Sequence record: PZ386970.1
DNA length: 64,000 bases
Source of the DNA: a phage
Strand: one strand, 5' to 3'
Numbering within the stretch: position 1 is the stretch's first letter; each line of letters begins with the position of its first letter. The position numbers were made by a program, and so were the translations under genes. Under the pieces are notes generated by a model. It did not search any database, was not told the DNA's origin, and saw only the letters and a list, made by a program, of their open reading frames with translations. Of the stretch, positions 1,329-36,423 are shown piece after piece.

Positions 1329-1529
1329 TTATTCGTAGAAGTCGGTAACTGTCCATGCGGAATTGCGATTAGACATTATTTTATTATACTCATCTTTAAA
1401 AGCAGATTTGAGCATTTGTTCAGTAACAATATGTTCTTCACCTGAAAAAGTATTGGTCAAAACATATTTTTTAATTTCAGGGACAACGAGAAGATGTTGT
1501 CCGGTTGAATACTCCATGTTGTTCTCCAT
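1329..1529 (-). CDS. hypothetical small protein (T4 45.2 position)
   Basis: 66 aa ORF between gp46 and rpbA, same position and size as T4 45.2. Confidence 0.4.
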   Translation of the reverse strand: MENNMEYSTGQHLLVVPEIKKYVLTNTFSGEEHIVTEQMLKSAFKDEYNKIMSNRNSAWTVTDFYE

Positions 1530-1571
1530 TTAATTTGATGTGGTCATTATAACCACATCGTGTTAAAGCGT

Positions 1572-3260
1572 TTATGAAACAGTCATCACAGTAAATCGTC
1601 CAACTTTGCTCATTTGAAGATGTTGTCCATAAGCTTGTGGGTCATGGTCTCTGTGACTAATTATAAACACGTTTGCATCGGTTAGAGAGTTAAGAATTGT
1701 TGAAATAGCTTTAATACCTTCAGAATCAGTCGCTGAATCCATGACTTCGTCCATAATTAATGTATTGATTCTAACACCAGAGACCTTTTCAGCAATATCT
1801 CGCCATGTAAACAACAATGCGATATCGATACGTGCCTTTTCACCTTGACTAAATGAAGCATAACTAAAATCTTCACGGCCACGTGATTTTATAGATTCAT
1901 TGAATTCTTCGTCAATAGAAAACACGTAATCAGCTTCCATGATTTTAAGATAATGGTTAATCTGCTTGTTGAACAGAGGCACATATTTTTTAATGATAGC
2001 ACCTTTAATACCAGAATCTTTTAACATATCTGTGATAATACCACGATGGTATTTTTCAAGAACGATATCTGATTTTGTTTTAATGATTTTATCAAGTTCT
2101 TTTTGAAGCAAAGCTATCTCATCGGCATGGTCGATAAATTCTGCTGAGGCTTGTTCTATTGCAGCTTTAACTTTCTTAGCTTTATCAATAGTGGCAATCA
2201 TTGCTTGTTTCTTGGTACGAATATCAGATGCAAGGTCCTGTTTAGTCTTAACATTAGCTCTATATTCGTCCACTAGGACACTCAGATTATCTCTGTGACA
2301 GGTAAGTTGCTCGAATGAGTGATTACATTCATGAAGCTTATCGGTAATCTTAGAGACAATAGGATCACCCTGGTGCAACTGTGATGCGCAAGTAGGACAT
2401 GTACCGCCATCATGATACATCTTAATAACTTTGTTATATGAGTCAATTTTAGATTTAATCAAGAATGCTTCTTGTCCTATCTTGTTGAATGCCTCAGTAG
2501 GATCTTCATCAAGAACGATATTAAGTAGTCGCTCATTAGCTTCTTCGATTTCTGCTTTTAATGAACGAGCTTCTTTGGCTAGGTCGTCATACATATTCTG
2601 TAGACGCGCTACATTATCACCAGATAATTTCTTTTGACGTTCGATATTATCGTTATAAATCTTAATTTGTTGGATAATACCATCTTTCTTGGCATCAAGA
2701 ACTTGTCCCTGGGAATTAAGTTCTCGAACTTGAGACTTATTGATTTTATCCATTTCAGCGAGTGTGCCAACTTCTAAAAGGTCTTCGACAAGTTTTCTAC
2801 GAGCAGGGGTGCTAAGAGCCATGAAAGGGGTATACCCTGCCGTCCCAAGCACAACGATTTGTTTAAAAGACGCGTATGACATTCCGATGCTACGTTCAAA
2901 TTCTTCTTGGAAGTCACGACTGCTGGCAGATTCATCGAGACGAACACCGTCAACGGAGATTTCGAAAATATTGGGCTTTTGGCCGCGTTTAATGAAGTAT
3001 TTTTTATCATCGAATTCCATCCAAAGCTCAACTAAGAGCTCTTTCTTGTTCGTGCTATTAATGATTTGTCCTTTCTTAACATCACGAAATGGTTTACCGA
3101 AAAGTCCGAAAGTAATGGCTTCTAACATCGTAGATTTACCACCGCCGTTTTTACCGGTGATTAATGTCTTTTGGACTTTATCTAATTGGATATCAATAGG
3201 ATTCCCACCTACCGACATGATGTTTTGATAACGAACACGATTTAATTTAAATGATTTCAT
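1572..3260 (-). CDS. 46: recombination endonuclease ATPase subunit gp46 (Rad50/SbcC-like)
   Basis: 562 aa; Walker A GKNGGGKST near the N-terminus, long central coiled coil, ABC signature SQGEK and Walker B LIMDEVMDS near the C-terminus; adjacent to gp47. Confidence 0.85.
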   Translation of the reverse strand: MKSFKLNRVRYQNIMSVGGNPIDIQLDKVQKTLITGKNGGGKSTMLEAITFGLFGKPFRDVKKGQIINSTNKKELLVELWMEFDDKKYFIKRGQKPNIFEISVDGVRLDESASSRDFQEEFERSIGMSYASFKQIVVLGTAGYTPFMALSTPARRKLVEDLLEVGTLAEMDKINKSQVRELNSQGQVLDAKKDGIIQQIKIYNDNIERQKKLSGDNVARLQNMYDDLAKEARSLKAEIEEANERLLNIVLDEDPTEAFNKIGQEAFLIKSKIDSYNKVIKMYHDGGTCPTCASQLHQGDPIVSKITDKLHECNHSFEQLTCHRDNLSVLVDEYRANVKTKQDLASDIRTKKQAMIATIDKAKKVKAAIEQASAEFIDHADEIALLQKELDKIIKTKSDIVLEKYHRGIITDMLKDSGIKGAIIKKYVPLFNKQINHYLKIMEADYVFSIDEEFNESIKSRGREDFSYASFSQGEKARIDIALLFTWRDIAEKVSGVRINTLIMDEVMDSATDSEGIKAISTILNSLTDANVFIISHRDHDPQAYGQHLQMSKVGRFTVMTVS

Positions 3261-3505: not shown

Positions 3506-3740
3506 CCTCGATGCAGGCTTCAGCCATTTTCAGAAGAGAACCAGGAGTATCACCGTCCATTACATTGAAACTGAATTCCACAGCCCAGTCTGTACAGACA
3601 CGAACTGCTTTAACTTCACCGTCTTCAACTCGTAATGGTTCAATCCAGTATTTCACTGTGTTCTCGAATCCATCATCATCTTTAACGTCTATTTCAACTT
3701 CAAGCCCGAGCCCAGCATTGTTAAATTCATCTAAAGTCAT
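3480..3740 (-). CDS. hypothetical acidic protein (46.2-like position)
   Basis: 86 aa acidic ORF with start overlapping the gp47 stop; no recognisable motif. Confidence 0.4.
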   Translation of the reverse strand: MTLDEFNNAGLGLEVEIDVKDDDGFENTVKYWIEPLRVEDGEVKAVRVCTDWAVEFSFNVMDGDTPGSLLKMAEACIEDAYNDYED

Positions 3741-4756
3741 TGTGTTGCCTCAATATAAAGTTCGTTGGAATATTTGACCAGCGCTTCTCTGTCTTCGTCT
3801 GAGATATCTGGAATCGCATCAATATATTCTTTAATGATATCTTGAAGTGATTTAATCTCGATTTCCTGGTCGTCATCGGATTCAACACTGTTATCAACTT
3901 TAGAAACCATACGAAGAGAGTGAACTACTTTTTCAAGTTCAGATTCAAACTTAGTCAATTCTGAATCAATTTCTGATACTATAACACGTACGGCTAGATT
4001 AGTATAATCAGAATAATTGATTTTGCCTTTAAACGGATAAGTGATTCGTCGATGCCATGTTGTTTCATTAGGAATAAATTCCATACGTTCAACATCAGTG
4101 TCAAATACCCAGAATCCGCGCGGGTCATTCTCATCGCCTGCAGTAAGGGTCCATGGTGTCCCAATATATTTGACGTTAGCAGCTTCAGAGATTGTGTGGA
4201 AGTGGCCAGACCAGACTTGTTTATAGGTCTTTAAGAAATCAGGTTCAAGCCCATGAGACTTCATTCCTTTATAGAAATAAAAGCCATTCAGTTCCCAGTG
4301 TCCAACACAATACGCAGCAGAAGAAGTCTTGATGTGCTCTAAGATTTCACCTGTATTTTCTTCACACATCCATGGAATTAAATCAATCAGACACCCATCG
4401 AAATCAACAGTCGTAGGTTTATCATAAATAACAACATTTTTACGATGAGACAAAAGCTCTTGGGTTGTATTAGGGTATAAAGTTGTCTTATAAAAAAGGT
4501 CGTGGTTACCCAAAATAGTGTGAACGGTTATTCCAGCGTTTTCAGCCATATCAAATAATTCACGAGTAAACTCCATACAACGTTGTGTTGTGTGAGCTCG
4601 TACATCAAATACGTCCCCGTACTGTATCCATGTTGTTATTCCATTTTTAACAGAATAATCCACCATTTGTTTGAATCCGTGTCGTTGGATGTTTTGAATC
4701 CAAACATCATCCTTTTTTACACCTAAGTGCAAATCGCCCACGTTAAGAATTTTCAT
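3737..4756 (-). CDS. 47: recombination endonuclease nuclease subunit gp47 (Mre11/SbcD-like)
   Basis: Calcineurin-like phosphoesterase motifs GDLHLG and GNHD; start moved to MKILNVGD by analogy to T4 gp47. Confidence 0.85.
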   Translation of the reverse strand: MKILNVGDLHLGVKKDDVWIQNIQRHGFKQMVDYSVKNGITTWIQYGDVFDVRAHTTQRCMEFTRELFDMAENAGITVHTILGNHDLFYKTTLYPNTTQELLSHRKNVVIYDKPTTVDFDGCLIDLIPWMCEENTGEILEHIKTSSAAYCVGHWELNGFYFYKGMKSHGLEPDFLKTYKQVWSGHFHTISEAANVKYIGTPWTLTAGDENDPRGFWVFDTDVERMEFIPNETTWHRRITYPFKGKINYSDYTNLAVRVIVSEIDSELTKFESELEKVVHSLRMVSKVDNSVESDDDQEIEIKSLQDIIKEYIDAIPDISDEDREALVKYSNELYIEATQ

Positions 4757-5570
4757 ATTGCACCTTAAATTTACCATAAATTATACTGTGATAACTTAAA
4801 TCAGGAAAACCTTCTGCGACGGCTAAAGGTCTAAACTTCTTAGGACTTATTCTACCACATTTTACCCAAAGAGTATATAGTGCTTCATAATATTCAAATA
4901 ATGGTCCTTTACGAGCTTCAGAAACAGTTTTACGCACTTTGTCCTTTATTGACGGGTCTAAATTTCTAAGGGTTTCACTAATTTTGTTTCGATGGGTTTC
5001 ATTAATAAGATTTCCTTTAACCCAGCCTTCAGGTTCAGTCCCTGGGACAAACATTTTCTTTTCTTTGCCATTATTATACCATTTGCGACCTTTATTGTGA
5101 CTAGAGGCTTTATATTCAGGAGAACGACCTTTTACATTACCTTCTGGTATATAAGGTAGAAAACTTTGTTCTAACGTTTCAGGGTTGTATGAGTGTATAT
5201 GGCCTTTACCATTATGTGAGCCGTACAATGGGTGCTCTTCTTTTGGAAGTGATAATCCGAAAAATCCTTTAGGAGCAGCAATTGCTTTATTCATATACAT
5301 CGGGTTATTGGCAGCATCCACCTTTAGTTGGAGTAAACGTTCAGCTTTTGTCGCTTCTTCTCTTGTGGCGTGTTCACTTACAATACATGAATCAAAAAGA
5401 TGTGGATTCATTTTTAGTTCAGAATTGTAAATTTCCTTATACGCTTTTGATAAAACCGTTCCGTGATATCCAGCTTTATGTTTTGCAATATTTGTGGAAC
5501 CTATATAAAACGGTGGAAGTTTGTCACCATCATAAATCGTAAAATATACTATGTACATGTTATTCTCCAT
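4743..5570 (-). CDS. putative free-standing GIY-YIG homing endonuclease (Seg-like)
   Basis: N-terminal IVYF-x10-YIGS arrangement resembling GIY-YIG, followed by basic repeats resembling NUMOD3-type DNA-binding modules; occupies the slot where T4 has a-gt. Confidence 0.55.
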   Translation of the reverse strand: MENNMYIVYFTIYDGDKLPPFYIGSTNIAKHKAGYHGTVLSKAYKEIYNSELKMNPHLFDSCIVSEHATREEATKAERLLQLKVDAANNPMYMNKAIAAPKGFFGLSLPKEEHPLYGSHNGKGHIHSYNPETLEQSFLPYIPEGNVKGRSPEYKASSHNKGRKWYNNGKEKKMFVPGTEPEGWVKGNLINETHRNKISETLRNLDPSIKDKVRKTVSEARKGPLFEYYEALYTLWVKCGRISPKKFRPLAVAEGFPDLSYHSIIYGKFKVQYENS

Positions 5571-5584
5571 TTTGTATAGAAATT

Positions 5585-5614
5585 ACTATATCATAGTTTA
5601 TACTGTTTGTAAAC
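5585..5614 (-). promoter_or_regulatory. T4-type early promoter (-35 GTTTAC, -10 TATAGT)
   Basis: Minus strand reads GTTTAC-18 nt-TATAGT about 20 nt upstream of the endonuclease ORF start. Confidence 0.45.
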
Positions 5615-5628
5615 CCTAGAAACGAGAA

Positions 5629-5648
5629 AAGGAACTCCGAAGAGTTCC
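5629..5648 (-). terminator. putative rho-independent terminator
   Basis: Minus-strand hairpin GGAACTC-TTCG-GAGTTCC followed by UUUUCUCGUUUC, just upstream of the promoter above. Confidence 0.4.
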
Positions 5649-5860
5649 TATCCACATAGTACACCGTACAGAGGCTCATTTGAACTTTTAAATCGAATGG
5701 GCTTGTATGTAATAGTTCCTTCGGCAGAAGCTTTATCATAAGACTCTTTAAAACGTCTCATTCTTTCTGCTTTGCCTTTACGGATTTTATCGAAATTTTC
5801 AGAAGTCGGGATGTTCGTCATGCATAAGCACCTCTCAGAAAATGCCTAAATCGATTTCTC

Positions 5861-6082
5861 TCATCGTTTCCACCATTTCTTAACTTGAAATGAATCAACC
5901 CACACGAGTTGTTTTGGGTCTGCCTTTACAATAGGCAGACAAATTTCTGTAATAGAACCGTCGTGATATTCCTTTTCAGAAATTTTAACACAAAGAGGAC
6001 CTCCCAATTTAAGGGTGAACCCTGCGTTCAGCTTCAGACGTTTAAACTTTGTTTGAACTAGCGCCATTAATGATGTCCTCAA
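5861..6082 (-). CDS. hypothetical protein
   Basis: 73 aa ORF in the minus-strand early array; no motif. Confidence 0.3.
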   Translation of the reverse strand: MRTSLMALVQTKFKRLKLNAGFTLKLGGPLCVKISEKEYHDGSITEICLPIVKADPKQLVWVDSFQVKKWWKR

Positions 6083-6365
6083 TAGCCTGACGAGTAGTAA
6101 CCCACTGGATTTTAATTAACTTGTCATTATATGGTTGTCGTAGAATATCCCGAGATTTCTTAATAGCATATTCGTAAGCTTCGAAGTTGTTTTGAATTGC
6201 TGCTTCTTGAGCATGAGCATAAAGACGGTTTAGCTCAAAACGATTCTTTTTAAGAATCTTTTCGGATTTTTTACGTGCTTCAGCTTCATTTTTCTTTTGT
6301 ATTTCTTGTAGCATTTTGGCTACTGCATCTTCTGCTTCTTTATTTTCAATAATCTCGGTAGTCAT
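6042..6365 (-). CDS. hypothetical protein
   Basis: 107 aa charged, helical ORF; no motif. Confidence 0.35.
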   Translation of the reverse strand: MTTEIIENKEAEDAVAKMLQEIQKKNEAEARKKSEKILKKNRFELNRLYAHAQEAAIQNNFEAYEYAIKKSRDILRQPYNDKLIKIQWVTTRQAIEDIINGASSNKV

Positions 6366-6366
6366 A

Positions 6367-6582
6367 TTATCTCATTAAATTAAAATAAAAACGTCCGTCC
6401 TCTTCAATACAGAACTCGTACTCAACTGGAGTCCCATTTATCGAAAATGACACGTCATGTGGGTTCAAAGGGTCGATGTCAAAATTAATTTTAAATTCTC
6501 TACCCAACAGTTTTACCAAATAAGGGATTGCTTCGTCAAAAGGTTCTTCTAAGTAGTTAGAGATGTCAATTGTTATCCTCAT
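6367..6582 (-). CDS. hypothetical protein
   Basis: ORF trimmed to the internal Met (MRITIDIS...) to limit overlap with gp55. Confidence 0.35.
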
Positions 6583-7123
6583 ATAAAAAATCCAAACTAG
6601 GCGAATCGCTAACAACTTCCTTCTTTTCAGCCCCAGGAGCTTTATAAGCTGATTCTTCATAATGCGTCATTTTATCGTAGATGTCTTGAATAAACGTTTC
6701 ATCTACCAACGCTACCATATCATCGTCATGACTGTCGTAGACATTATGAACGAAGTAACTATATTTCTTTGCAACTTCCTTACGTTCTTTTTTGATACGT
6801 TGGACAAAAGCATTAAAACAAGCTCGAGTTATGTATGCATGTGGGTTATTGTACTTAGTTTCGTCGAAATTATGAAGTCCCTTAATAGAGGCTTCAATCC
6901 CATCTGCAATCATCTCCTGCTTCCAAGACTGGGTATATCCTGAAAAGTTGAAACGTTTGGACAGGCCTTCGGCGATAAGCATAATTGCTAAACCGATGGT
7001 ATCATTCTGACGAATAATTTTGTTTGGGTCTTTATTATTTAAGAGCTCCTTTTTCCACTCGATTATAGCGGCGAGAAGCTCTTTATTATTCACATAGTTA
7101 TTTTTAGGTTTTTGTTCAGTCAT
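6566..7123 (-). CDS. 55: late-transcription sigma factor gp55
   Basis: 185 aa; sequence (NYVNNKELL...[29 protein letters not shown]...) corresponds to T4 gp55 along its length as I recall it. Confidence 0.9.
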
Positions 7124-7195
7124 AAGTACCTCTTAGCTCAATTCATAGGTCTATTATATCATAATATTTAGAGACCTATCTTAAAGCACGAGATA

Positions 7196-7465
7196 CTATC
7201 GGAGCAAACAATAAGCCTGAAACACTTTTTCCATTAAACGTTTGAACTCATGGATATCGATATAAAGCTCAGTAAGACCGGCATTATAAAGAAAATCTAA
7301 AAAGTTCTCATGTGTTTCGTTATAGTCGCCTTCGTTTAATTGAGATACATGAGTTTCCCAAAAACCAACACCTTTAACGAATGGAAAATACGTGACTTTC
7401 ATGTATTCGTCAACATAAAATTCGCCAAGCTTTTCTTCTGTTATAGAAATTCGAGATAGTTTCAT
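7196..7465 (-). CDS. hypothetical protein (55.x region)
   Basis: 89 aa ORF in tight minus-strand array. Confidence 0.35.
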   Translation of the reverse strand: MKLSRISITEEKLGEFYVDEYMKVTYFPFVKGVGFWETHVSQLNEGDYNETHENFLDFLYNAGLTELYIDIHEFKRLMEKVFQAYCLLR

Positions 7466-7689
7466 TCTATTTCCTTTGCTGCTTCAAGAGCAGCATCCAG
7501 CGAATCAAATTGGTCAACGAAATCAATATTCAACGCATCGTCAACCGTAGCATATAACCACCATTGTTTGAATTCATATTCTAGGATAAATCCAGGCCCT
7601 TCAATCTGAGGAAGACCTAGACTATTTGTACCAACTTCGTAACCAGCTAGACGCAGGTCATTAATCAAAGTTTCTGTTAATACGCTCAT
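7462..7689 (-). CDS. hypothetical protein (55.x region)
   Basis: 75 aa acidic ORF, start overlaps upstream stop. Confidence 0.35.
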   Translation of the reverse strand: MSVLTETLINDLRLAGYEVGTNSLGLPQIEGPGFILEYEFKQWWLYATVDDALNIDFVDQFDSLDAALEAAKEIE

Positions 7690-8066
7690 TTTACCGCCTT
7701 AACAATTTTCAGGTCAGCGAATTTTTTCTTACGTTGATTTTTCATACGACGGATAGTCTTTTCAGAGATTTCATGTTTCTGATAAGCTTTAGATTCAACA
7801 CCAAATGCAGCAACGTCAAATTCAGAAAGAATATATTGTACTAGAATTTCACGAATAGAATTACGTCCAATTTTCTGGTCGTGTTTTTGCATGATTTCAT
7901 AAAGACGGAATTCCCACGCGTCAAGAACTTGAGGAGTAACAATATTGCCGGATTCCAGAAGAGCAACAACTTTATCGAAAGCGAAAGAATTAACTACGTT
8001 TTTGATTTTAGTAGACATATTATTTTCCTCGGTTATTTTATTATCCAACGAGAGAATTATACTCAT
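7686..8066 (-). CDS. hypothetical protein (55.x region)
   Basis: 126 aa ORF; start may be at a downstream Met. Confidence 0.35.
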   Translation of the reverse strand: MSIILSLDNKITEENNMSTKIKNVVNSFAFDKVVALLESGNIVTPQVLDAWEFRLYEIMQKHDQKIGRNSIREILVQYILSEFDVAAFGVESKAYQKHEISEKTIRRMKNQRKKKFADLKIVKAVK

Positions 8067-8084
8067 CTCCCAAGAGTTTGTATA

Positions 8085-8324
8085 TTATTTTTTAAGCATG
8101 AAAAGTAAGTAATTTGTATCACGTGGAGTAATATCAACACCCATATCAAAGATGCCTTTATAGATTGGGTATTTGTTTTCGGTTGTATCGAAGCTGAAAC
8201 TATTTCCATCACAACTAACAGTAATAGCATCTGTTAAAATGTCATACTCAACCCTAACAATTGAATCCCCAATTTTAACGTCGAGGTGTTTTTTGAATTT
8301 GATAAAATCTAATTCTTGGGCCAT
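8085..8324 (-). CDS. hypothetical protein
   Basis: 79 aa ORF; palindromic promoter-like element lies just upstream at about 8340-8385. Confidence 0.35.
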   Translation of the reverse strand: MAQELDFIKFKKHLDVKIGDSIVRVEYDILTDAITVSCDGNSFSFDTTENKYPIYKGIFDMGVDITPRDTNYLLFMLKK

Positions 8325-8387
8325 GATATTTTCCTCATTTTAAGACGATAGGAAGACATGTTATTATCTTCCTATCGTTGTACATTA

Positions 8388-8588
8388 TTAACCGAACTTT
8401 TTAGCGCCTTTCCAGCCTTCGTACATAACTGCACAAGTCAGTAGTACAGCGTGCTGGCATTCTTTGTATTTGTAAATCCAGAACCAGCGTAAGAAGTCTT
8501 CATCCTCAACGCCGTTGAGTTTCATATTGGCAAAGAATTCGGCACGTTCTTCACGAAGTTGCCATGACACAATATTTTCAGGATTCAT
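8388..8588 (-). CDS. hypothetical protein
   Basis: ORF trimmed to MNPENIVSW...; coupled overlap with neighbours. Confidence 0.3.
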   Translation of the reverse strand: MNPENIVSWQLREERAEFFANMKLNGVEDEDFLRWFWIYKYKECQHAVLLTCAVMYEGWKGAKKFG

Positions 8589-8719
8589 TTTGTGTTCCAC
8601 GCCCCATTTTCATCGATGAACTTAATCCAGTCATTTACAGACCATTTAGTTGTATCACCCTTTGGATTAACATTTAAAGTATATAATCCCTGCTTAAAAA
8701 GCATTCGTTTGATATTCAT
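8585..8719 (-). CDS. hypothetical small protein
   Basis: ORF trimmed to the internal Met (MNIKRMLFKQ...) so it packs without long overlap. Confidence 0.25.
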   Translation of the reverse strand: MNIKRMLFKQGLYTLNVNPKGDTTKWSVNDWIKFIDENGAWNTK

Positions 8720-8726
8720 AATTTCC

Positions 8727-9020
8727 TCAACTGTAACGATAACATTCGTTAGCTTTACGTTTGGCTTCAGTATGAGAAGTATTATAATCATACTCTTCTT
8801 TACTGTAAACATCTTTTTTCAACTTACGAACTTCTTTGCGGAGTTGTCGATTCATTTCATTCTTGACTTCAGAATCAACACCTTTCATACGTTTCCATTT
8901 ATCTGAGCGGAAGATGTTTTCAACCATGTTTTTGTGGCTAACACCATCAGGAGCTTTACGCTTACCAAAATAGTCGTAATCGCGAACTTTCAAATCTTTA
9001 CGACGATATGTTTTACCCAT
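8727..9020 (-). CDS. hypothetical basic protein
   Basis: Lys/Arg-rich ORF trimmed to MGKTYRRKDLK... Confidence 0.3.
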   Translation of the reverse strand: MGKTYRRKDLKVRDYDYFGKRKAPDGVSHKNMVENIFRSDKWKRMKGVDSEVKNEMNRQLRKEVRKLKKDVYSKEEYDYNTSHTEAKRKANECYRYS

Positions 9021-9027
9021 AAGTACC

Positions 9028-9276
9028 TCAGAGGTTGATTGATACAATGCGTTTGATAAAATTCACTTCACTTACTGAAAGGTCTTTAAGACCGATTGAT
9101 TCTAAACGCTGAGTAAGCGTCAACATCGGGATATAGTCCCATTGAGTTTTAGACGCTTGATAAGTACGAACGCCATTAGCAATTTCAACATGCAAATTTG
9201 AAATGGTAACGAATACCAGACGCTCATCATTAACTTTAAGGGTTAGAACAACTTTCTTTGAATCTAAACTAATCAT
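9028..9276 (-). CDS. hypothetical protein
   Basis: 82 aa ORF preceded by an early promoter. Confidence 0.4.
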   Translation of the reverse strand: MISLDSKKVVLTLKVNDERLVFVTISNLHVEIANGVRTYQASKTQWDYIPMLTLTQRLESIGLKDLSVSEVNFIKRIVSINL

Positions 9277-9304
9277 TTTATTTTCCTCTATAGTAGTTGG
9301 TTTA

Positions 9305-9333
9305 ATCTTAACATATCTATCGAGGATGTAAAC
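9305..9333 (-). promoter_or_regulatory. T4-type early promoter
   Basis: Minus strand: GTTTAC-17 nt-TAAGAT, about 30 nt upstream of the ORF starting at 9276. Confidence 0.45.
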
Positions 9334-9422
9334 TGTTTTATGAAAATATTTTTATTTGAGAGGGGCACAAGGAGATAGTGAAGTGAAGATTCCAATGGAT
9401 TATATTAGAAATAGGATAAAGA

Positions 9423-9441
9423 AGACCAGGCGGCACCTGGT
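9423..9441 (-). terminator. putative terminator hairpin
   Basis: GACCAGG-CGGCA-CCTGGTC palindrome overlapping the nrdH stop, followed on the minus strand by a U-rich tract. Confidence 0.35.
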
Positions 9442-9770
9442 CAATCTTCTATGATATCAGAGTCGTATCCTAATGAAATCAAAGACTTTTTAAACTCTGC
9501 AATATTCTTTTGTTTCTTATCATTTAAAAATATGACAGGATAACGAATATTAAGTGAAGTGAATCCTGCACGTTTAGCAAGAGATACGATTAAAGGACGG
9601 TCATATTCAATCTTACCATTATTAGTGAGGACTTTATAAAATGTATAAGGAGCATTGAGCTCCTTTAAAAGTTTTGTAACAGTATAACATCCTGGACAAC
9701 GTCCTACTTCTTCAGGGATGCCGTAGATTTCAATCTTATTCTTTAAGTTCGAGTTTTGTTCCACGAGAAA
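9440..9770 (-). CDS. nrdH: glutaredoxin-like redoxin (NrdH-like), start uncertain
   Basis: About 100 aa thioredoxin-fold protein with CPGC active-site motif directly upstream of nrdG; no in-frame ATG near the expected start, so a GTG start overlapping the upstream gene is likely. Confidence 0.45.
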
Positions 9771-10047
9771 TAATTCCTTGATAAGCCCAATAAGGAGGAT
9801 TAACAGAATCCTCACCCGAGTTTTCTTCAGGAAAATAAACCTGGATAACAAATCCAGATGCATCAAAGGTAAAATAAACCGTAGGCAGTTCACCTAACAA
9901 TTCGGCACGAGCGTTGATTTCTTCGAGGTCTTGTTCACGTCCAGCCCAAAAACTAGGATTTAGACTACATTCGTAAAAATAATAGTCATTACCGAACATA
10001 TCAAACCCCTTCCAACTCTCTACCACGTACCGCTCAAAACTAATCAT
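9736..10047 (-). CDS. hypothetical protein
   Basis: 103 aa ORF; no motif. Confidence 0.4.
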   Translation of the reverse strand: MISFERYVVESWKGFDMFGNDYYFYECSLNPSFWAGREQDLEEINARAELLGELPTVYFTFDASGFVIQVYFPEENSGEDSVNPPYWAYQGIISRGTKLELKE

Positions 10048-10049
10048 AA

Positions 10050-10265
10050 TTAAGCCTTTTTATCAAGAACAGAATTCAGTTTGTTAGTAATTTTGTCCAG
10101 ACGCTCATTGAACTCACTAGAAGATAAGCCCTTTTCCGGAGAAATTAAACTAATCACGAAAAATACACCAGTAAAAGGAATAAGAAAAATAGCTCCAACT
10201 GCCATAAACAGAAAGAATGTTACAGTTGTAAGAAAATCAGCTAAACCTTTACGAAATTTATACAT
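10050..10265 (-). CDS. hypothetical small membrane protein
   Basis: 71 aa with one long hydrophobic segment (FFLFMAVGAIFLIPFTGVFFVISLI). Confidence 0.4.
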   Translation of the reverse strand: MYKFRKGLADFLTTVTFFLFMAVGAIFLIPFTGVFFVISLISPEKGLSSSEFNERLDKITNKLNSVLDKKA

Positions 10266-10376
10266 ATTTACCCTTAATTAATTAACCAAGCGTTGATAAG
10301 CAAACCATATTGCGAATAAAATTCTGGACCAAAATGAAAAATCATATCATTTATAGTATCCATAATGTAGTTCAAT

Positions 10377-10847
10377 TTAATCATGTTTCCACACCCCATC
10401 GGTATTTGACCAAAGTCGCTGATTATCTGATCCTCGCCACAGCTTTTTGGTCGGAAGATTTTTCTCATACTTCCCATCAATAATAACATCAACATATTTA
10501 AGCATTTCTAGCTGTTTAATATCTTCAAACTTATATCCTGTCCACAACCAAATGCTTTTATTAGGATAAAGATTTTTTACTGTTTGAACAATGCAATGAA
10601 TAACATCTCGGTTATCAGGATAGAGAGGGTCACCTCCGGTTATAGTCAATCCTTCTATATAATCATTATTCAAACATTCAATTAATTGTTCTAGTGTTTC
10701 ACCAGTGAATGGAATACCATTTCTAGCATTCCATGTTGATTTATTATAACACCCTTCGCATTTATGCAAACACCCTGTAACGAAAAGAACGACCCTACAA
10801 CCAGGGCCATTCACAAAATCGCAAGGATAAAACCTATCATAATTCAT
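10377..10847 (-). CDS. nrdG: anaerobic ribonucleotide reductase activating protein NrdG
   Basis: 156 aa radical-SAM activase with CLHKCEGC (Cx3Cx2C) cluster motif; directly downstream of nrdD. Confidence 0.9.
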   Translation of the reverse strand: MNYDRFYPCDFVNGPGCRVVLFVTGCLHKCEGCYNKSTWNARNGIPFTGETLEQLIECLNNDYIEGLTITGGDPLYPDNRDVIHCIVQTVKNLYPNKSIWLWTGYKFEDIKQLEMLKYVDVIIDGKYEKNLPTKKLWRGSDNQRLWSNTDGVWKHD

Positions 10848-12120
10848 TGGTGTTTAACCCTATGCATGATTTCTTTATTTTTACCGAGATTAAATCCGCG
10901 TTCGTTCGGATTTCCCAAATAGCCGCATGTTCTTCTTATGGTGTTCATCTTTTTAGGATCAGTTTCTCCACAAACTGAACAAACAAATCCGTTTTCAGTA
11001 GGAGTCATTTCATGAGTACTTCCGCATGTAAAACATTTATCCACTGGCATATTAACACCAAAATAATCTAAATGTTGTGCAGCATAATCCCAGACAGCCT
11101 CAAGACCCTTTAAATTGTTTTTCATATCTGGAAGTTCAACATAAGAAATGTGACCACCTGTCGCAATGAAATGATATGGCGCTTCACGAGAAATCTTTTC
11201 AAATGGAGTAATATTTTCTTCTACTGAAACATGGAAACTGTTAGTGTACCAGCCTTTATCGGTAACATCTTTTACACTTCCATATTTTTCTGTGTCTAGT
11301 TTACAGAAACGATAACAAAGGTTTTCAGCAGGAGTAGAATACAAACTAAAAGCAAATCCAGTTCTTTCAGTCCACTGTTTAAGATGAGCATTCATTTTAG
11401 TTAAAATTTCTTGCCCAATATCACGACCAACAAGAATATTCAATTCATGAATACCAATGTATCCTAAAGACACTGAACTTCTACCATTTTTAAATAACTC
11501 AATTATGTCATCATCAGGTTTAAGACGAACCCCGAATGCACCTTCTTGGTAAAGAATAGGAGCAACAGTCGCTTTAACTCCTTTTAAGGAACTAATTCTA
11601 CACATCAAAGCTTCAAAACATAAATCCATTCGTTCATTGAATAATTCAACAAATTTCTGTTCATTGAACTGTGTTCCAATATAAGAATCTAATGCGATAC
11701 GAGGAAGATTCAGTGTTACAACACCGAGATTATTACGTCCATCAAGAATTTCATTACCAGTCGAATCTTTCCATACACTCAAGAAACTACGGCAGCCCAT
11801 TGGAGAAACAGGAACAGATGAACCGGTAATAGCTTTATTATTCTTAACAGAAATAATGTCAGGATACATTCTTTTGCTTGCACATTCTAACGCAAGTTGT
11901 TTAATATCATAGTTCGGATCATCTTTATAAAGATTAACACCCTCTTCAACAAACATAACAAGTTTAGGAAAAATAGGAGTTATCCCATCACGACCAAGAC
12001 CTTTAATACGATTTTTCAGAATTGCTTTCTGAATCATTCGTTCAGTCCAGTCAGTTCCCGTACCAAATGTAATTGTTACAAAAGGCGTTTGTCCATTAGA
12101 GCTGAAAAGTGTATTTACTT
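10844..12120 (-). CDS. nrdD: anaerobic ribonucleotide reductase NrdD, exon 2 (5' boundary approximate)
   Basis: Glycyl radical motif RTCGYLG and C-terminal zinc ribbon CFTCGS...CSVCGE; reading frame continues from exon 1 across a roughly 1 kb intron; splice acceptor not mapped. Confidence 0.8.
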
Positions 12121-13164
12121 CATCATTATATTCAGCATGAGTCGCAAATTCATGCCCGTTTATATGAAACAACAAAATTTGGATAGTCCATAGATATGCA
12201 ACGTTCTTTTATAGTGCTAGGATGAAAATTTAGCGCTTTAGCTGCTTCTATATAAGACGTATACTTAATACCGTCAACAACCACATATTCAGGAACTTTA
12301 TGAATAGTAGTCTTAATACTCAAAACAAGAGGATGAGTTTCGACTTCACTTTCAGTGCAATTTAAATATTCCGCTGCTTTTTTAAAACTTCTAAAAGTTT
12401 TATTTTTAAGCTTTATCGATACTTGTTTTTTACTTTTTCGACTATTGATATTATTTTGCACATGTTCCTTAGATCTTCCATTTTTAGCATAATATTCAGC
12501 TACAGAAGATTTTATATTGTTTTTATGAGATTTGGATAACACTTTACCCTTATGAGCATCTCTTAATTTTTGAATATGTTCTTCAGTATCCGGATGTTTA
12601 TAAAACTTTTTACCGCCTATGGATTTATTTAAACATTTTTTGCTATAAAAATATTTACGTATGACCTCTTCTTCATGTTTTAATGCATCTTTATAACTAT
12701 CAAATGTTTTTAAAATTATCCATTTAGTAGGTGTATCAGTTTTTAAGCGTTCATTTATATACTTAGATGACGTTGTGTAAGTTTTCCAGTTTGTGGGCTT
12801 GTTTTTAATTGTTCTAAATTTTTTATAACCGATATAAATGTCGCCATTAGAAAACTTAACTAAGTATGTAAATGCGTCTTTATCTTTTATTTTAGTACAA
12901 CGTCTTTTTATCCATTTCATTGTTTCACCTCGTATTCATAAGATAATCTTATTTATACAAGATGACTGCTGCATGTCGCCATGCAGATTAGACTATATCT
13001 TCATCTTTCGATGCCGGCCGTTTCGAATAGCATTAGCTTCTATTCTACACCGTTACATTCATCACGGTTAGTCGTTAGGCATTTAGTTCAAAAGAACATT
13101 TAGCACGGGATTGTCTTACTAGAGAGGTTCCCCGTTTAGACCGGTTTTACATGAGCCTGAATTA
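12121..13164 (-). other. group I intron in nrdD (boundaries approximate)
   Basis: Exon 1 frame hits a stop at 13162-13164; GC-rich structured non-coding sequence at 12925-13160; embedded endonuclease ORF; same arrangement as the T4 nrdD intron. Confidence 0.6.
12150..12920 (-). mobile_element. intron-encoded GIY-YIG homing endonuclease
   Basis: 256 aa ORF inside the nrdD intron; TYL-x7-IYIGY arrangement near the N-terminus and basic repeats (KGKVLSKSHKNNIKSS, KNGRSKEH) resembling NUMOD3 modules. Confidence 0.65.
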
Positions 13165-13707
13165 AATTAACTCATACGCCTGAAATGCATCGTATACATC
13201 TTTTTCTGTTTTAGATTGAGCATAATTCAACGCATCAGCGATTTGCCATTTTTCTGCATCCTCAATATGTTTTGCATAGGTGCGTTTAACATAAGGAGAA
13301 AGTACTTTATCTACATTTGCAAAAGTCGTTCCGCCGTATTGATGGGAAGCAACCTGTGCAGTAATTTGTGCCATAATTGCAGTAGCAACGCCAATTGATT
13401 TAGGAGTTTCAATCTGTGCATTACCTAGCTTAAATCCATTTTCAAGCATTCCTTTTAAATCTACTAAACAGCAATTAGTAAAAGGAAGAGCAGGGGAATA
13501 ATCAATATCGTGCACGTGAATAATTCCGCTTTCATGCGCTTTCATAATAAAAGACGGGACCATATTTTTGGCAATGTGTTTAGACACAATACCAGCCATA
13601 AGGTCCCGTTGAGTTGGAAAAACACGAGAATCTTTATTAGCATTCTCGTTCAAAAGATCTTTATTAGTTTTATGAATTAATCCTTCAATTTCTTTTTCAA
13701 TTTTCAT
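13165..13707 (-). CDS. nrdD: anaerobic ribonucleotide reductase NrdD, exon 1
   Basis: 181 aa N-terminal portion of class III RNR; terminates at the intron boundary. Confidence 0.8.
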
Positions 13708-14177
13708 TTTAAACTCTTTCTAAGCTGCTTTTTGAATGAAGCTATTAATTGTGGTTTAGTATCAGATTCATTATATTCAAATCCTCTTTGAAGCATCTCA
13801 GCCATCATTTCCTCTTTACCTAAACGAGAAAATTCCTTTGATTTATCTCCAACAAAATTAGGATGGATATTATTATCAGAATAATCTTGTTTCAAATAAG
13901 CAAGAAGAGCTTCAAGCCATTCTAGGTAGTCGACATCACGGCCTTTAAGACCAGAACGGTTGAACTTATGCTTCATTTGACCTTCTGCTGCGTTGCACAG
14001 ATTACAGAGTAATCCACGAACTCTACCGGCTTTTGGCCCGTTTAATTCGTGGTCGTGGTCAAGATGGTTACCTTGAACATCAGGGTCTAATTCACGGTGG
14101 CAAATAGGACACTTACCGTTCTGTGCATCATAAAATTTTTGTTTTTCTTCTTTATATTTTGCGCCTGATAATAACAT
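13704..14177 (-). CDS. 49: endonuclease VII (Holliday junction resolvase, gp49)
   Basis: 157 aa; NGKCPICHREL...HLDHDHELNGPKAG...LLCNLCNAAEG matches T4 endonuclease VII as I recall it, including zinc ligands. Confidence 0.9.
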   Translation of the reverse strand: MLLSGAKYKEEKQKFYDAQNGKCPICHRELDPDVQGNHLDHDHELNGPKAGRVRGLLCNLCNAAEGQMKHKFNRSGLKGRDVDYLEWLEALLAYLKQDYSDNNIHPNFVGDKSKEFSRLGKEEMMAEMLQRGFEYNESDTKPQLIASFKKQLRKSLK

Positions 14178-35882: not shown

Positions 35883-36423
35883 GGATTAAATTGTTAGTGA
35901 AATTAGGACTAACAACCATGGTTTCATAAAGCGCATCAATAGCACTTAAAGCATCAACTCTTTTAAGCAAAGGCTTGCCTTCATACATAGTTTCAGAATC
36001 AACGATTAAAGTGAAGTAGTATTTTTTATTATCGACTAGAACTTCTGTATCGATATAAAACATATTAGACCTCAGAAGTTTATCTCTAAAGCCTACATAA
36101 TCATCTGAACGTTCACTGATATATTCCCATTCGGTGTTTAAACAACAAACAGACCATGTAGGAGCAACGAAATCAGTGAATCTAATATCATGGTCTGCAA
36201 CTAGTTTAGCAATAGCTCCGATATCATGAATCATAATACCTGGGGCTAATAAAGATTTTCTACTATGGCTAGCCGTTTTCTCAGTAGTCTCATAAGAAGA
36301 CGACCAGTACCATTTACGTCCAGTTGCAACATATCGTAATGAATCAACTAAAGACGTAGGTGGATTTACCTTATCTCGGAACTCTTCGAACATTGAGTCA
36401 ATATCATTATTTTGGTTTCGCAT
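35821..36423 (-). CDS. soluble protein with FIMECR tail
   Basis: About 200 aa starting MRNQNNDIDS...; C-terminus LEQFIMECREYVKANPIHAN. Confidence 0.45.
   Translation of the reverse strand: MRNQNNDIDSMFEEFRDKVNPPTSLVDSLRYVATGRKWYWSSSYETTEKTASHSRKSLLAPGIMIHDIGAIAKLVADHDIRFTDFVAPTWSVCCLNTEWEYISERSDDYVGFRDKLLRSNMFYIDTEVLVDNKKYYFTLIVDSETMYEGKPLLKRVDALSAIDALYETMVVSPNFTNNLILEQFIMECREYVKANPIHAN

Follow-up and report, generated by a model that had tools for sequence, protein, structure and literature searches.

A SegA-like free-standing endonuclease gene next to a mosaic gene 47 in a T4-type phage of the genus Mosigvirus

An open reading frame (ORF) directly upstream of recombination gene 47 in the phage of sequence record PZ386970.1 probably encodes a free-standing homing endonuclease of the GIY-YIG superfamily, similar to SegA of phage T4. 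Our confidence applies to the explanation as a whole, a Seg-type homing endonuclease together with the imported cassette that carries it. It is built on the protein's fold and family, the sporadic presence of its gene, the boundaries of the insertion, a mosaic tract in gene 47 and purifying selection, all of which we observed. We analysed 64,000 nucleotides (nt) of the record as one strand (hereafter the window), and all coordinates count from its first letter. Its gene order (45, rpbA, 46, 47, the endonuclease ORF, small ORFs, 55 and, further along, nrdG and nrdD) is that of a T4-type phage segment. Megablast of window positions 3700-7200 assigned it to the genus Mosigvirus (RB69/JS09-like), with Escherichia phage LF82-4 as the closest record (98.5% identity across the full query).

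On the minus strand, the ORF runs uninterrupted over 4743..5570, and its longest reading gives 275 amino acids (aa). The probable start is the second ATG, at 5558, which yields 271 aa, because a GGAG sequence (5568..5565) lies 6 nt upstream, the N termini of all homologues agree on this position and LF82-4 is annotated in the same way. The ORF is not a chance reading frame, since it has 47 database homologues, its catalytic-domain family comprises 1451 clusters at 50% identity with E<=1e-3 (1136 with E<=1e-10), and the ratio of non-synonymous to synonymous substitution rates (dN/dS) is 0.13. This ratio comes from comparing the window copy with that of LF82-4 (8 synonymous against 4 non-synonymous changes, p=8e-4) and shows purifying selection on the protein. 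Antisense ORFs of 53-86 aa on the plus strand of the region lie opposite conserved coding sequence. The coding sequence divides as follows, with residues numbered on the 275-aa reading.

4743..5558, minus strand: endonuclease coding sequence, 271 aa plus stop, within the maximal ORF beginning at 5570 and preceded by GGAG as ribosome-binding site.
5271..5558, minus strand: N-terminal GIY-YIG catalytic domain, aa 5-100, with motifs Y9-x-T-x-Y13, F21-Y22-I23-G24-S25, Y35-x-G37, E77 and N94.
5001..5270, minus strand: linker, aa 101-190, placed from AlphaFold secondary structure and predicted local-distance difference test scores (pLDDT), the family alignment and the NUMOD3 repeats of relatives.
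4746..5000, minus strand: C-terminal five-helix domain, aa 191-275, homologous to the T4 SegA C terminus ('LW..G...KF..A...GFP..SY').

The original prediction had read a free-standing GIY-YIG-like endonuclease gene from the stretch 'IVYF...YIGS', and conserved residues, fold and profile comparison all bear this out. Profile searching led to a nuclease family: a profile of 38 homologues matched T4 SegA with an hhalign probability of 96.1% (E 3.2e-9, 183 columns), over both the C-terminal helical domain and the catalytic region, where it extends from the YIG motif as far as the conserved Glu and Asn. SegA used as a tblastn query also matched the ORF (E 0.004). An AlphaFold model made from the homologue alignment (mean pLDDT 86.9) contains the three-stranded sheet with flanking helices found in I-TevI and UvrC (beta-beta-alpha-alpha-beta-alpha core). 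Its three top Foldseek matches in PDB are the I-TevI catalytic domain (probability 0.96-0.99), and further matches are PD-T4-3 (9u75, a GIY-YIG restriction enzyme), UvrC and, lower down, EndoII and Eco29kI.

Within the close family, residues Y9, T11, Y13, G15, Y22-I23-G24, Y35, G37, E51, E77 and N94 never vary, and in a wider sample of 73 representatives they are still nearly invariant (>=90%), with Y22 fully invariant and I23 and G24 nearly so; S25 is invariant in the close family alone. Y9 and Y13 fall on strand 1 (the 'GIY' element) and F21-Y22-I23-G24-S25 on strand 2 (the 'YIG' element). E77 aligns with the Glu of SegA 'DAEREL' and, judged by spacing, E77 and N94 would be the counterparts of I-TevI E75 and N90.

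Database labels point elsewhere. The best PHROGs match, phrog_10820 (E 6e-75), is labelled 'HNH endonuclease', as are the LF82-4 record and many Tequatrovirus records, and a second match, phrog_314 (E 3.5e-18), is labelled 'homing endonuclease'. The HNH label is wrong, and with the labels as its whole case an HNH enzyme has next to no chance of being the right reading. The ORF matches no Pfam HNH family at E<=1; the HNH enzyme MobB of T4 shows no similarity to the region by tblastn; the top fold matches include no HNH/beta-beta-alpha-Me enzyme and are all GIY-YIG enzymes; and the family profile matches SegA, with 2 of the 73 representatives hitting Pfam GIY-YIG PF01541 (best E 2.6e-6) and 0 of 73 hitting HNH. 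Reassignment corrects a widespread mis-annotation, as 'HNH endonuclease' or 'hypothetical', of a family with at least 1100 clusters at 50% identity. Other searches were less informative. At E<=1 the ORF itself matched no Pfam family, GIY-YIG PF01541 and NUMOD3 PF07460 included, and Pfam, NCBIfam and PDB sequence searches with the ORF, plus a PDB search with the family profile, returned nothing useful. We dismissed an NCBIfam RelB match (E 0.007, at 16 bits where the cut-off is 50) and a PDB match to Sec72 (E 0.64) as noise.

NUMOD-like features, the other part of that prediction, hold for the family: NUMOD3 occupies the equivalent linker in 33 of the 73 representatives. In the ORF itself no Pfam NUMOD match appeared at E<=1, and 'HPLYGSHNGKG' (aa 113-123) is at most a degenerate NUMOD3 copy. 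The AlphaFold model shows a low-confidence stretch followed by two predicted beta-hairpins, one with a 'KWYNNG...P.GW.KG' module, where relatives have their NUMOD3 repeats. The C-terminal domain is probably a helix-turn-helix DNA-binding domain.

Two T4 enzymes offer close comparisons. SegA is a free-standing GIY-YIG homing endonuclease encoded between uvsX and b-gt, with uvsX listed as its target (PMC2988022). The ORF shares with it profile homology over the catalytic ('YIG...GY.GS...E...N') and C-terminal ('LW..G...KF..A..GFP..SY') domains, a free-standing position directly upstream of a recombination gene and a size class (221 versus 271 aa). It differs in sequence (~25% identity), in its insertion at gene 47 rather than uvsX, in a longer linker with WYNNG-type hairpin modules and in that its activity is a prediction. 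I-TevI, the td intron endonuclease (PDB 1LN0/1MK0), gives the best fold match for the N-terminal ~100 residues and likewise joins its catalytic domain through a flexible linker to a C-terminal DNA-binding domain. Identity to I-TevI is nevertheless 13-16% with no sequence-level match, and the ORF is not intron-encoded and has no zinc finger (no Cys cluster).

The gene is intergenic, in neither an intron nor an intein, with gene 47 on one side and small a-gt.2 to a-gt.5 homologues and gene 55 (6566..7123) on the other, and it is present or absent among otherwise near-identical genomes. Among 729 phage records that match window 3700-7200, coverage reaches at least 80% in LF82-4 alone, and 29 other records among the matches listed give two-piece alignments that skip the ORF. 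Its copies in Mosigvirus are those of the window, one other isolate (LF82-4) and one metagenomic contig, intact in all three. Instead of the insert, the close relatives compared have a 61-nt terminator/promoter spacer at the site; in phage NBG1 these 61 nt separate terminator and gene 47, in the order terminator, canonical middle promoter (MotA box TGCTTTA, 11 nt, TAGAAT), ribosome-binding site and gene 47. Its alignment to the window over 5625..7300 (98.8% identity) resumes just past the terminator hairpin, which is identical in the window, LF82-4 and NBG1.

At the other edge the two genes are interlocked. Gene 47 starts at the ATG at 4756 (MKILNVGD...), although its maximal ORF extends to 4777; the endonuclease reading frame ends within codons 4-5 of gene 47, whose Shine-Dalgarno sequence AAGGTG (4766..4761) is in turn embedded in the final endonuclease codons. 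Similarity to NBG1 does not resume here. The first ~380 nt of gene 47 are ~63% identical to NBG1, against 93-100% in each 60-nt block over the other 640 nt. By these alignments, the unit that differs is therefore a cassette of ~1.25 kb (~4377..5625) made up of a promoter-like site, the endonuclease coding region and, from a foreign gene 47, the first ~380 nt. GC content over the insert (0.35-0.38, versus 0.33-0.41 in its surroundings) shows no composition anomaly. Listed in the direction of transcription, the features of the cassette and its edges are as follows.

5620..5649, minus strand: intrinsic terminator after the a-gt.2 homologue, the upstream cassette edge, from a terminator scan (stem 5649..5630 plus T-run) and the NBG1 alignment.
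5585..5613, minus strand: sigma-70 or T4-early-type promoter-like site, (G)TTTACA, 17 nt, TG-TATAGT, from a promoter scan (10/12 matches; a consensus match only).
4780..4803, minus strand: possible middle-type promoter for gene 47 in the endonuclease 3' end, TGATTTA (4803..4797), 11 nt, TATAAT (4785..4780), from reading of the sequence.
4377..4756, minus strand: foreign 5' tract of gene 47, codons 1-127, with GD.H, GD..D and GNHD motifs, from identity profiles and the nearest N-terminal alleles.
3737..4376, minus strand: remainder of gene 47, of resident type, with 93-100% identity to other Mosigvirus genomes in each 60-nt block.

The mosaic is equally sharp in the protein. Compared with Mosigvirus relatives that have no insert, gp47 is identical at 76 of 127 residues (60%) over residues 1-127 and at 212 of 212 over residues 128-339. 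A second Mosigvirus lineage, AV109 and its relatives, carries a 61%-identical endonuclease homologue at the same site, with its own diverged gene 47 tract and the same end point, and upstream of gene 47 in a metagenomic phage (L099) lies a homologue with 68% identity. Near-identical copies aside, AV109 and L099 have the closest homologues of the endonuclease. The window gp47 N terminus is 88% identical to that of AV109, 82% to that of L099 and <=64% to every other gp47 examined. Because the nearest gp47 N-terminal alleles thus belong to the phages with the closest endonuclease relatives, the gene 47 tract appears to have arrived with the endonuclease gene. A foreign tract with a sharp boundary is the pattern left by homing with co-conversion and, as read from these comparisons, is consistent with it but is not proof. 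Besides LF82-4 and one metagenomic contig, no database sequence was >77% nt-identical to the tract; the donor phage is unsampled, and the ~63% nt identity would place it outside the known Mosigvirus population. The locus offers a clean natural case in which an endonuclease gene is linked to an essential gene of mosaic structure.

The association with gene 47 extends well beyond one genus. In at least 5 T4-like lineages, family members lie directly upstream of gene 47 and usually overlap its start: Mosigvirus, Tequatrovirus (sutha, G9062, NBG2 and fPS-90), Dhakavirus (IME08), Tulanevirus (Aeromonas phage avDM3) and Klebsiella phage HMGUkp2. A gene-47-adjacent homologue was also present in 3 of 80 diverse IMG/VR gp47 loci. 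In the four Tequatrovirus genomes the homologue sits between 47.1 and 47, with an intact a-gt (the alpha-glucosyltransferase gene) beyond 47.1.

Several details of individual loci accompany this distribution. The 207-aa homologue of Tequatrovirus (loci L003 and L011-L016) begins exactly at the position of the gene 47 ATG in genomes that have no insert, and its 601-nt insert has ATGAAAA repeated at both ends. The homologue of IME08 (L007, 2501..3100) was left unannotated, and the records of IME08 and HMGUkp2 (L009) extend gp47 28 codons upstream into the homologue (1104 nt, versus 1020 nt elsewhere). In IMG/VR locus L054 and in KPV15 (hit H61), the endonuclease homologue comes in two pieces, by annotation or by alignment; L054 gene 47, translated from its start, reaches a stop after 39 codons, although tblastn aligns it at full length. 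Behind these cases are either frameshifts, in both the endonuclease gene and the 5' part of gene 47, or sequencing errors. At L092 (1003..1563), a family member lies directly upstream of a distant gene 47 (gp47 32% identity) in the opposite orientation.

The reading best supported by SegA homology and the comparative pattern, and one we consider likely, is that of a Seg-type homing endonuclease; its nuclease activity, target, direction of transfer and promoters we infer by analogy. The enzyme would be built from an N-terminal catalytic domain, a C-terminal helical domain that binds DNA and, joining the two, a flexible linker whose small beta-hairpin modules contact DNA. In a mixed infection it would, on the model of SegA to SegG, cut a genome lacking the gene in or beside the 5' end of gene 47. 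The break would be resected and repaired by recombination-dependent replication on the carrier-genome template, so that the endonuclease gene and flanking gene 47 sequence would be copied across. By such a route a Mosigvirus genome would have acquired the ~1.25-kb cassette, placed between gene 47 and the terminator that follows the a-gt.2 homologue, and the carrier's diverged gene 47 tract would protect it from cutting (self-immunity).

Precedent exists in T4 x T2 crosses, in which SegF with gene 56 and SegG with gene 32 give marker exclusion (summarised in PMC2988022). As in those pairs, the endonuclease gene here neighbours an essential gene of replication or recombination, whose flank would travel along and leave a mosaic allele, and promoters or ribosome-binding sites of the downstream gene are embedded in it. 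The locus differs from them in that exchange at gene 47 is deduced from comparative genomics, and in that the imported gene 47 tract is far more diverged. T4 itself has a free-standing endonuclease gene in the 47-55 interval, mobB, between a-gt and a-gt.2; MobB is of an unrelated family, has another exact site and shows no similarity to the ORF. A search of a literature collection found no account of a gene-47-associated Seg-type endonuclease, and the T4 Seg repertoire would gain such a member.

Several observations weigh against this reading. The canonical Arg after YIG (R27 in I-TevI) has no clear equivalent in the ORF, and SegA, too, has no obvious Arg there; by sequence alignment, position 30 is K or R (K in the ORF) and is kept in most close relatives. 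Nor could the cleavage site be deduced by comparing gene 47 of carriers and non-carriers. Between 4 Tequatrovirus carriers and 4 non-carriers, the sole fully discriminating positions across 650 nt are gene 47 nt 9, 10, 15 and 18, all synonymous, which may mark the target or immunity site of the Tequatrovirus lineage. Across genera these positions fail: LF82-4 and AV109 keep A18, locus L044 keeps T10, and in Aeromonas the first 26 nt of gene 47 do not differ between a carrier and non-carriers. The four positions also lie where gene 47 overlaps the final endonuclease codons. We claim no target because of this cross-genus failure and the overlap with endonuclease codons. Furthermore, each end of the tract falls in sequence that genera have in common, the terminator on one side and the conserved gene 47 block from nt ~380 on the other, so that the ends probably mark where homology allowed resolution rather than the cut site. 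Ordinary homologous recombination with a foreign phage could account for the mosaic, the endonuclease gene being carried along as a passenger.

Taken further, that argument makes the gene a passenger or decaying relic, brought in by ordinary recombination on a foreign segment that spanned the 5' end of gene 47 and DNA upstream of it, and encoding a nuclease that no longer cuts or spreads. The position of the tract ends where homology resumes would suit such a history, as would the rarity of the insert in sequenced Mosigvirus and the existence of decayed copies elsewhere, such as the split copies in KPV15. We nonetheless judge it unlikely: the ORF is intact in every one of its three copies, is constrained at the dN/dS given above and retains all family-wide conserved residues, and occupation of the same site in many genera fits active targeting better than chance. 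We rate it very unlikely, in turn, that the protein is a nuclease or DNA-binding protein domesticated to the phage's benefit, through competitor exclusion, degradation of host DNA in the manner of the GIY-YIG-type EndoII or regulation of gene 47. Genomes that are otherwise near-identical differ in whether they have the gene, a patchiness typical of selfish elements and not of a useful core function; the closest characterised relative, SegA, is a homing enzyme; and Seg enzymes are themselves described as acting by competitor exclusion.

The insertion also bears on the promoters of gene 47. The promoter-like site at 5613..5585 occupies the place of the relatives' middle promoter, and the insertion has displaced the gene 47 middle promoter. 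The embedded TGATTTA/TATAAT pair at 4803..4780 could be its replacement, a weak proposal because TATAAT is also forced by the conserved codons S-I-I. In carrier locus L044, a near-consensus T4 middle promoter (AAGCTTTA, 12 nt, TAGAAT) lies at about 1520..1600, in the endonuclease 3' end just upstream of gene 47, which supports the idea that inserts bring replacement promoters for gene 47.

On a broader scale, these enzymes could form a lineage specialised on the 5' end of gene 47 that moves the GD.H/GD..D/GNHD segment between T4-like genera and leaves working chimeric gp47 proteins, a proposal we advance tentatively and rate at somewhat under an even chance. Gene 47 encodes the Mre11/SbcD-type nuclease with which T4-type phages process double-strand breaks, and RB69 is reported not to recombine with T4. 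If the proposal is true, a selfish nuclease reshapes the enzyme that probably resects its own breaks, across genus boundaries that otherwise limit recombination.

The endonuclease gene lies in the interval between genes 47 and 55 that in T4 holds a-gt as well as mobB, and the original prediction was right that no glycosyltransferase-sized ORF is found there. By the ORF list, the interval contains, besides the endonuclease, ORFs of 57, 73, 107 and 97 aa, three of which are Pfam DUF5486, DUF2654 and DUF5491. Nor did tblastn with T4 a-gt, T4 b-gt and RB69 ORF003c find a credible match anywhere in the 64-kb window; a weak T4 a-gt match at 36157..36336 (E 0.018, 69 aa) falls within a 207-aa ORF of the wrong size. 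The endonuclease ORF has no similarity to DNA hydroxymethylcytosine (hmC) glycosyltransferases (a-gt, b-gt and ORF003c; GT-B size 350-400 aa).

It had been suggested from this that a homing endonuclease replaced a-gt, and the ORF does lie at roughly the T4 a-gt position. Comparison of the interval across relatives speaks against displacement, which we consider extremely unlikely. The Mosigvirus genomes shown have no a-gt whether or not they carry the endonuclease gene, and those without the ORF are ~99% identical on the gene 55 side and in gene 47 past nt ~380; the NBG1 interval, for example, has the same make-up but for the insert and has no a-gt either. In the four Tequatrovirus genomes, moreover, the homologue coexists with an intact neighbouring a-gt and with 47.1. 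Because Mosigvirus genomes without the insert lack a-gt and Tequatrovirus carriers keep it, the missing a-gt is, on this genome comparison, a genus trait unrelated to the endonuclease gene.

A different DNA hypermodification system, the other explanation offered for the empty slot, does exist in the genus, but it is already published, is encoded elsewhere and has no connection with the endonuclease. In RB69 the DNA contains arabinosyl-hmC, and the candidate arabinosyltransferase is ORF003c, encoded between rIIA.1 and gene 39 (PMC6024577). We found ORF003c homologues at >=95% identity in 156 phage records, and LF82-4 has a 99% identical one at the expected position between rIIA.1 and gene 39. 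The absence of a-gt therefore reflects the known arabinosyl-hmC biology of RB69-like phages and signals neither a new modification system nor a gene replacement.

A second endonuclease gene lies nearby. In the window, nrdD is interrupted (10844..13707, minus strand), with an exon 1 ORF at 13162..13707 and exon 2 at 10844..12175 that cover Pfam NRDD positions 1-141 and 145-562, respectively. Between the exons lies a group I intron core (Rfam RF00028, 12969..13205, 72 bits; gathering score 50), detected when 1.5 kb were scanned by E-value, and the intron ORF (12150..12920, 256 aa) matches Pfam SegE_GIY-YIG and NUMOD1. The interruption is a T4 sunY/nrdD-type intron with an I-TevII-like endonuclease. 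An Rfam scan of 4300..13800 at the gathering threshold had given no match, a weak negative for the gene 47 region since the same scan missed this 72-bit intron; Rfam negatives over large stretches, here 9.5 kb, need care. Window 11900-13400 is covered to at least 80% by 44 of 712 phage records, and the best matches (98.6-99.1%) include one labelled Tequatrovirus, which on sequence grounds hints at transfer of the intron between genera together with exon sequence.

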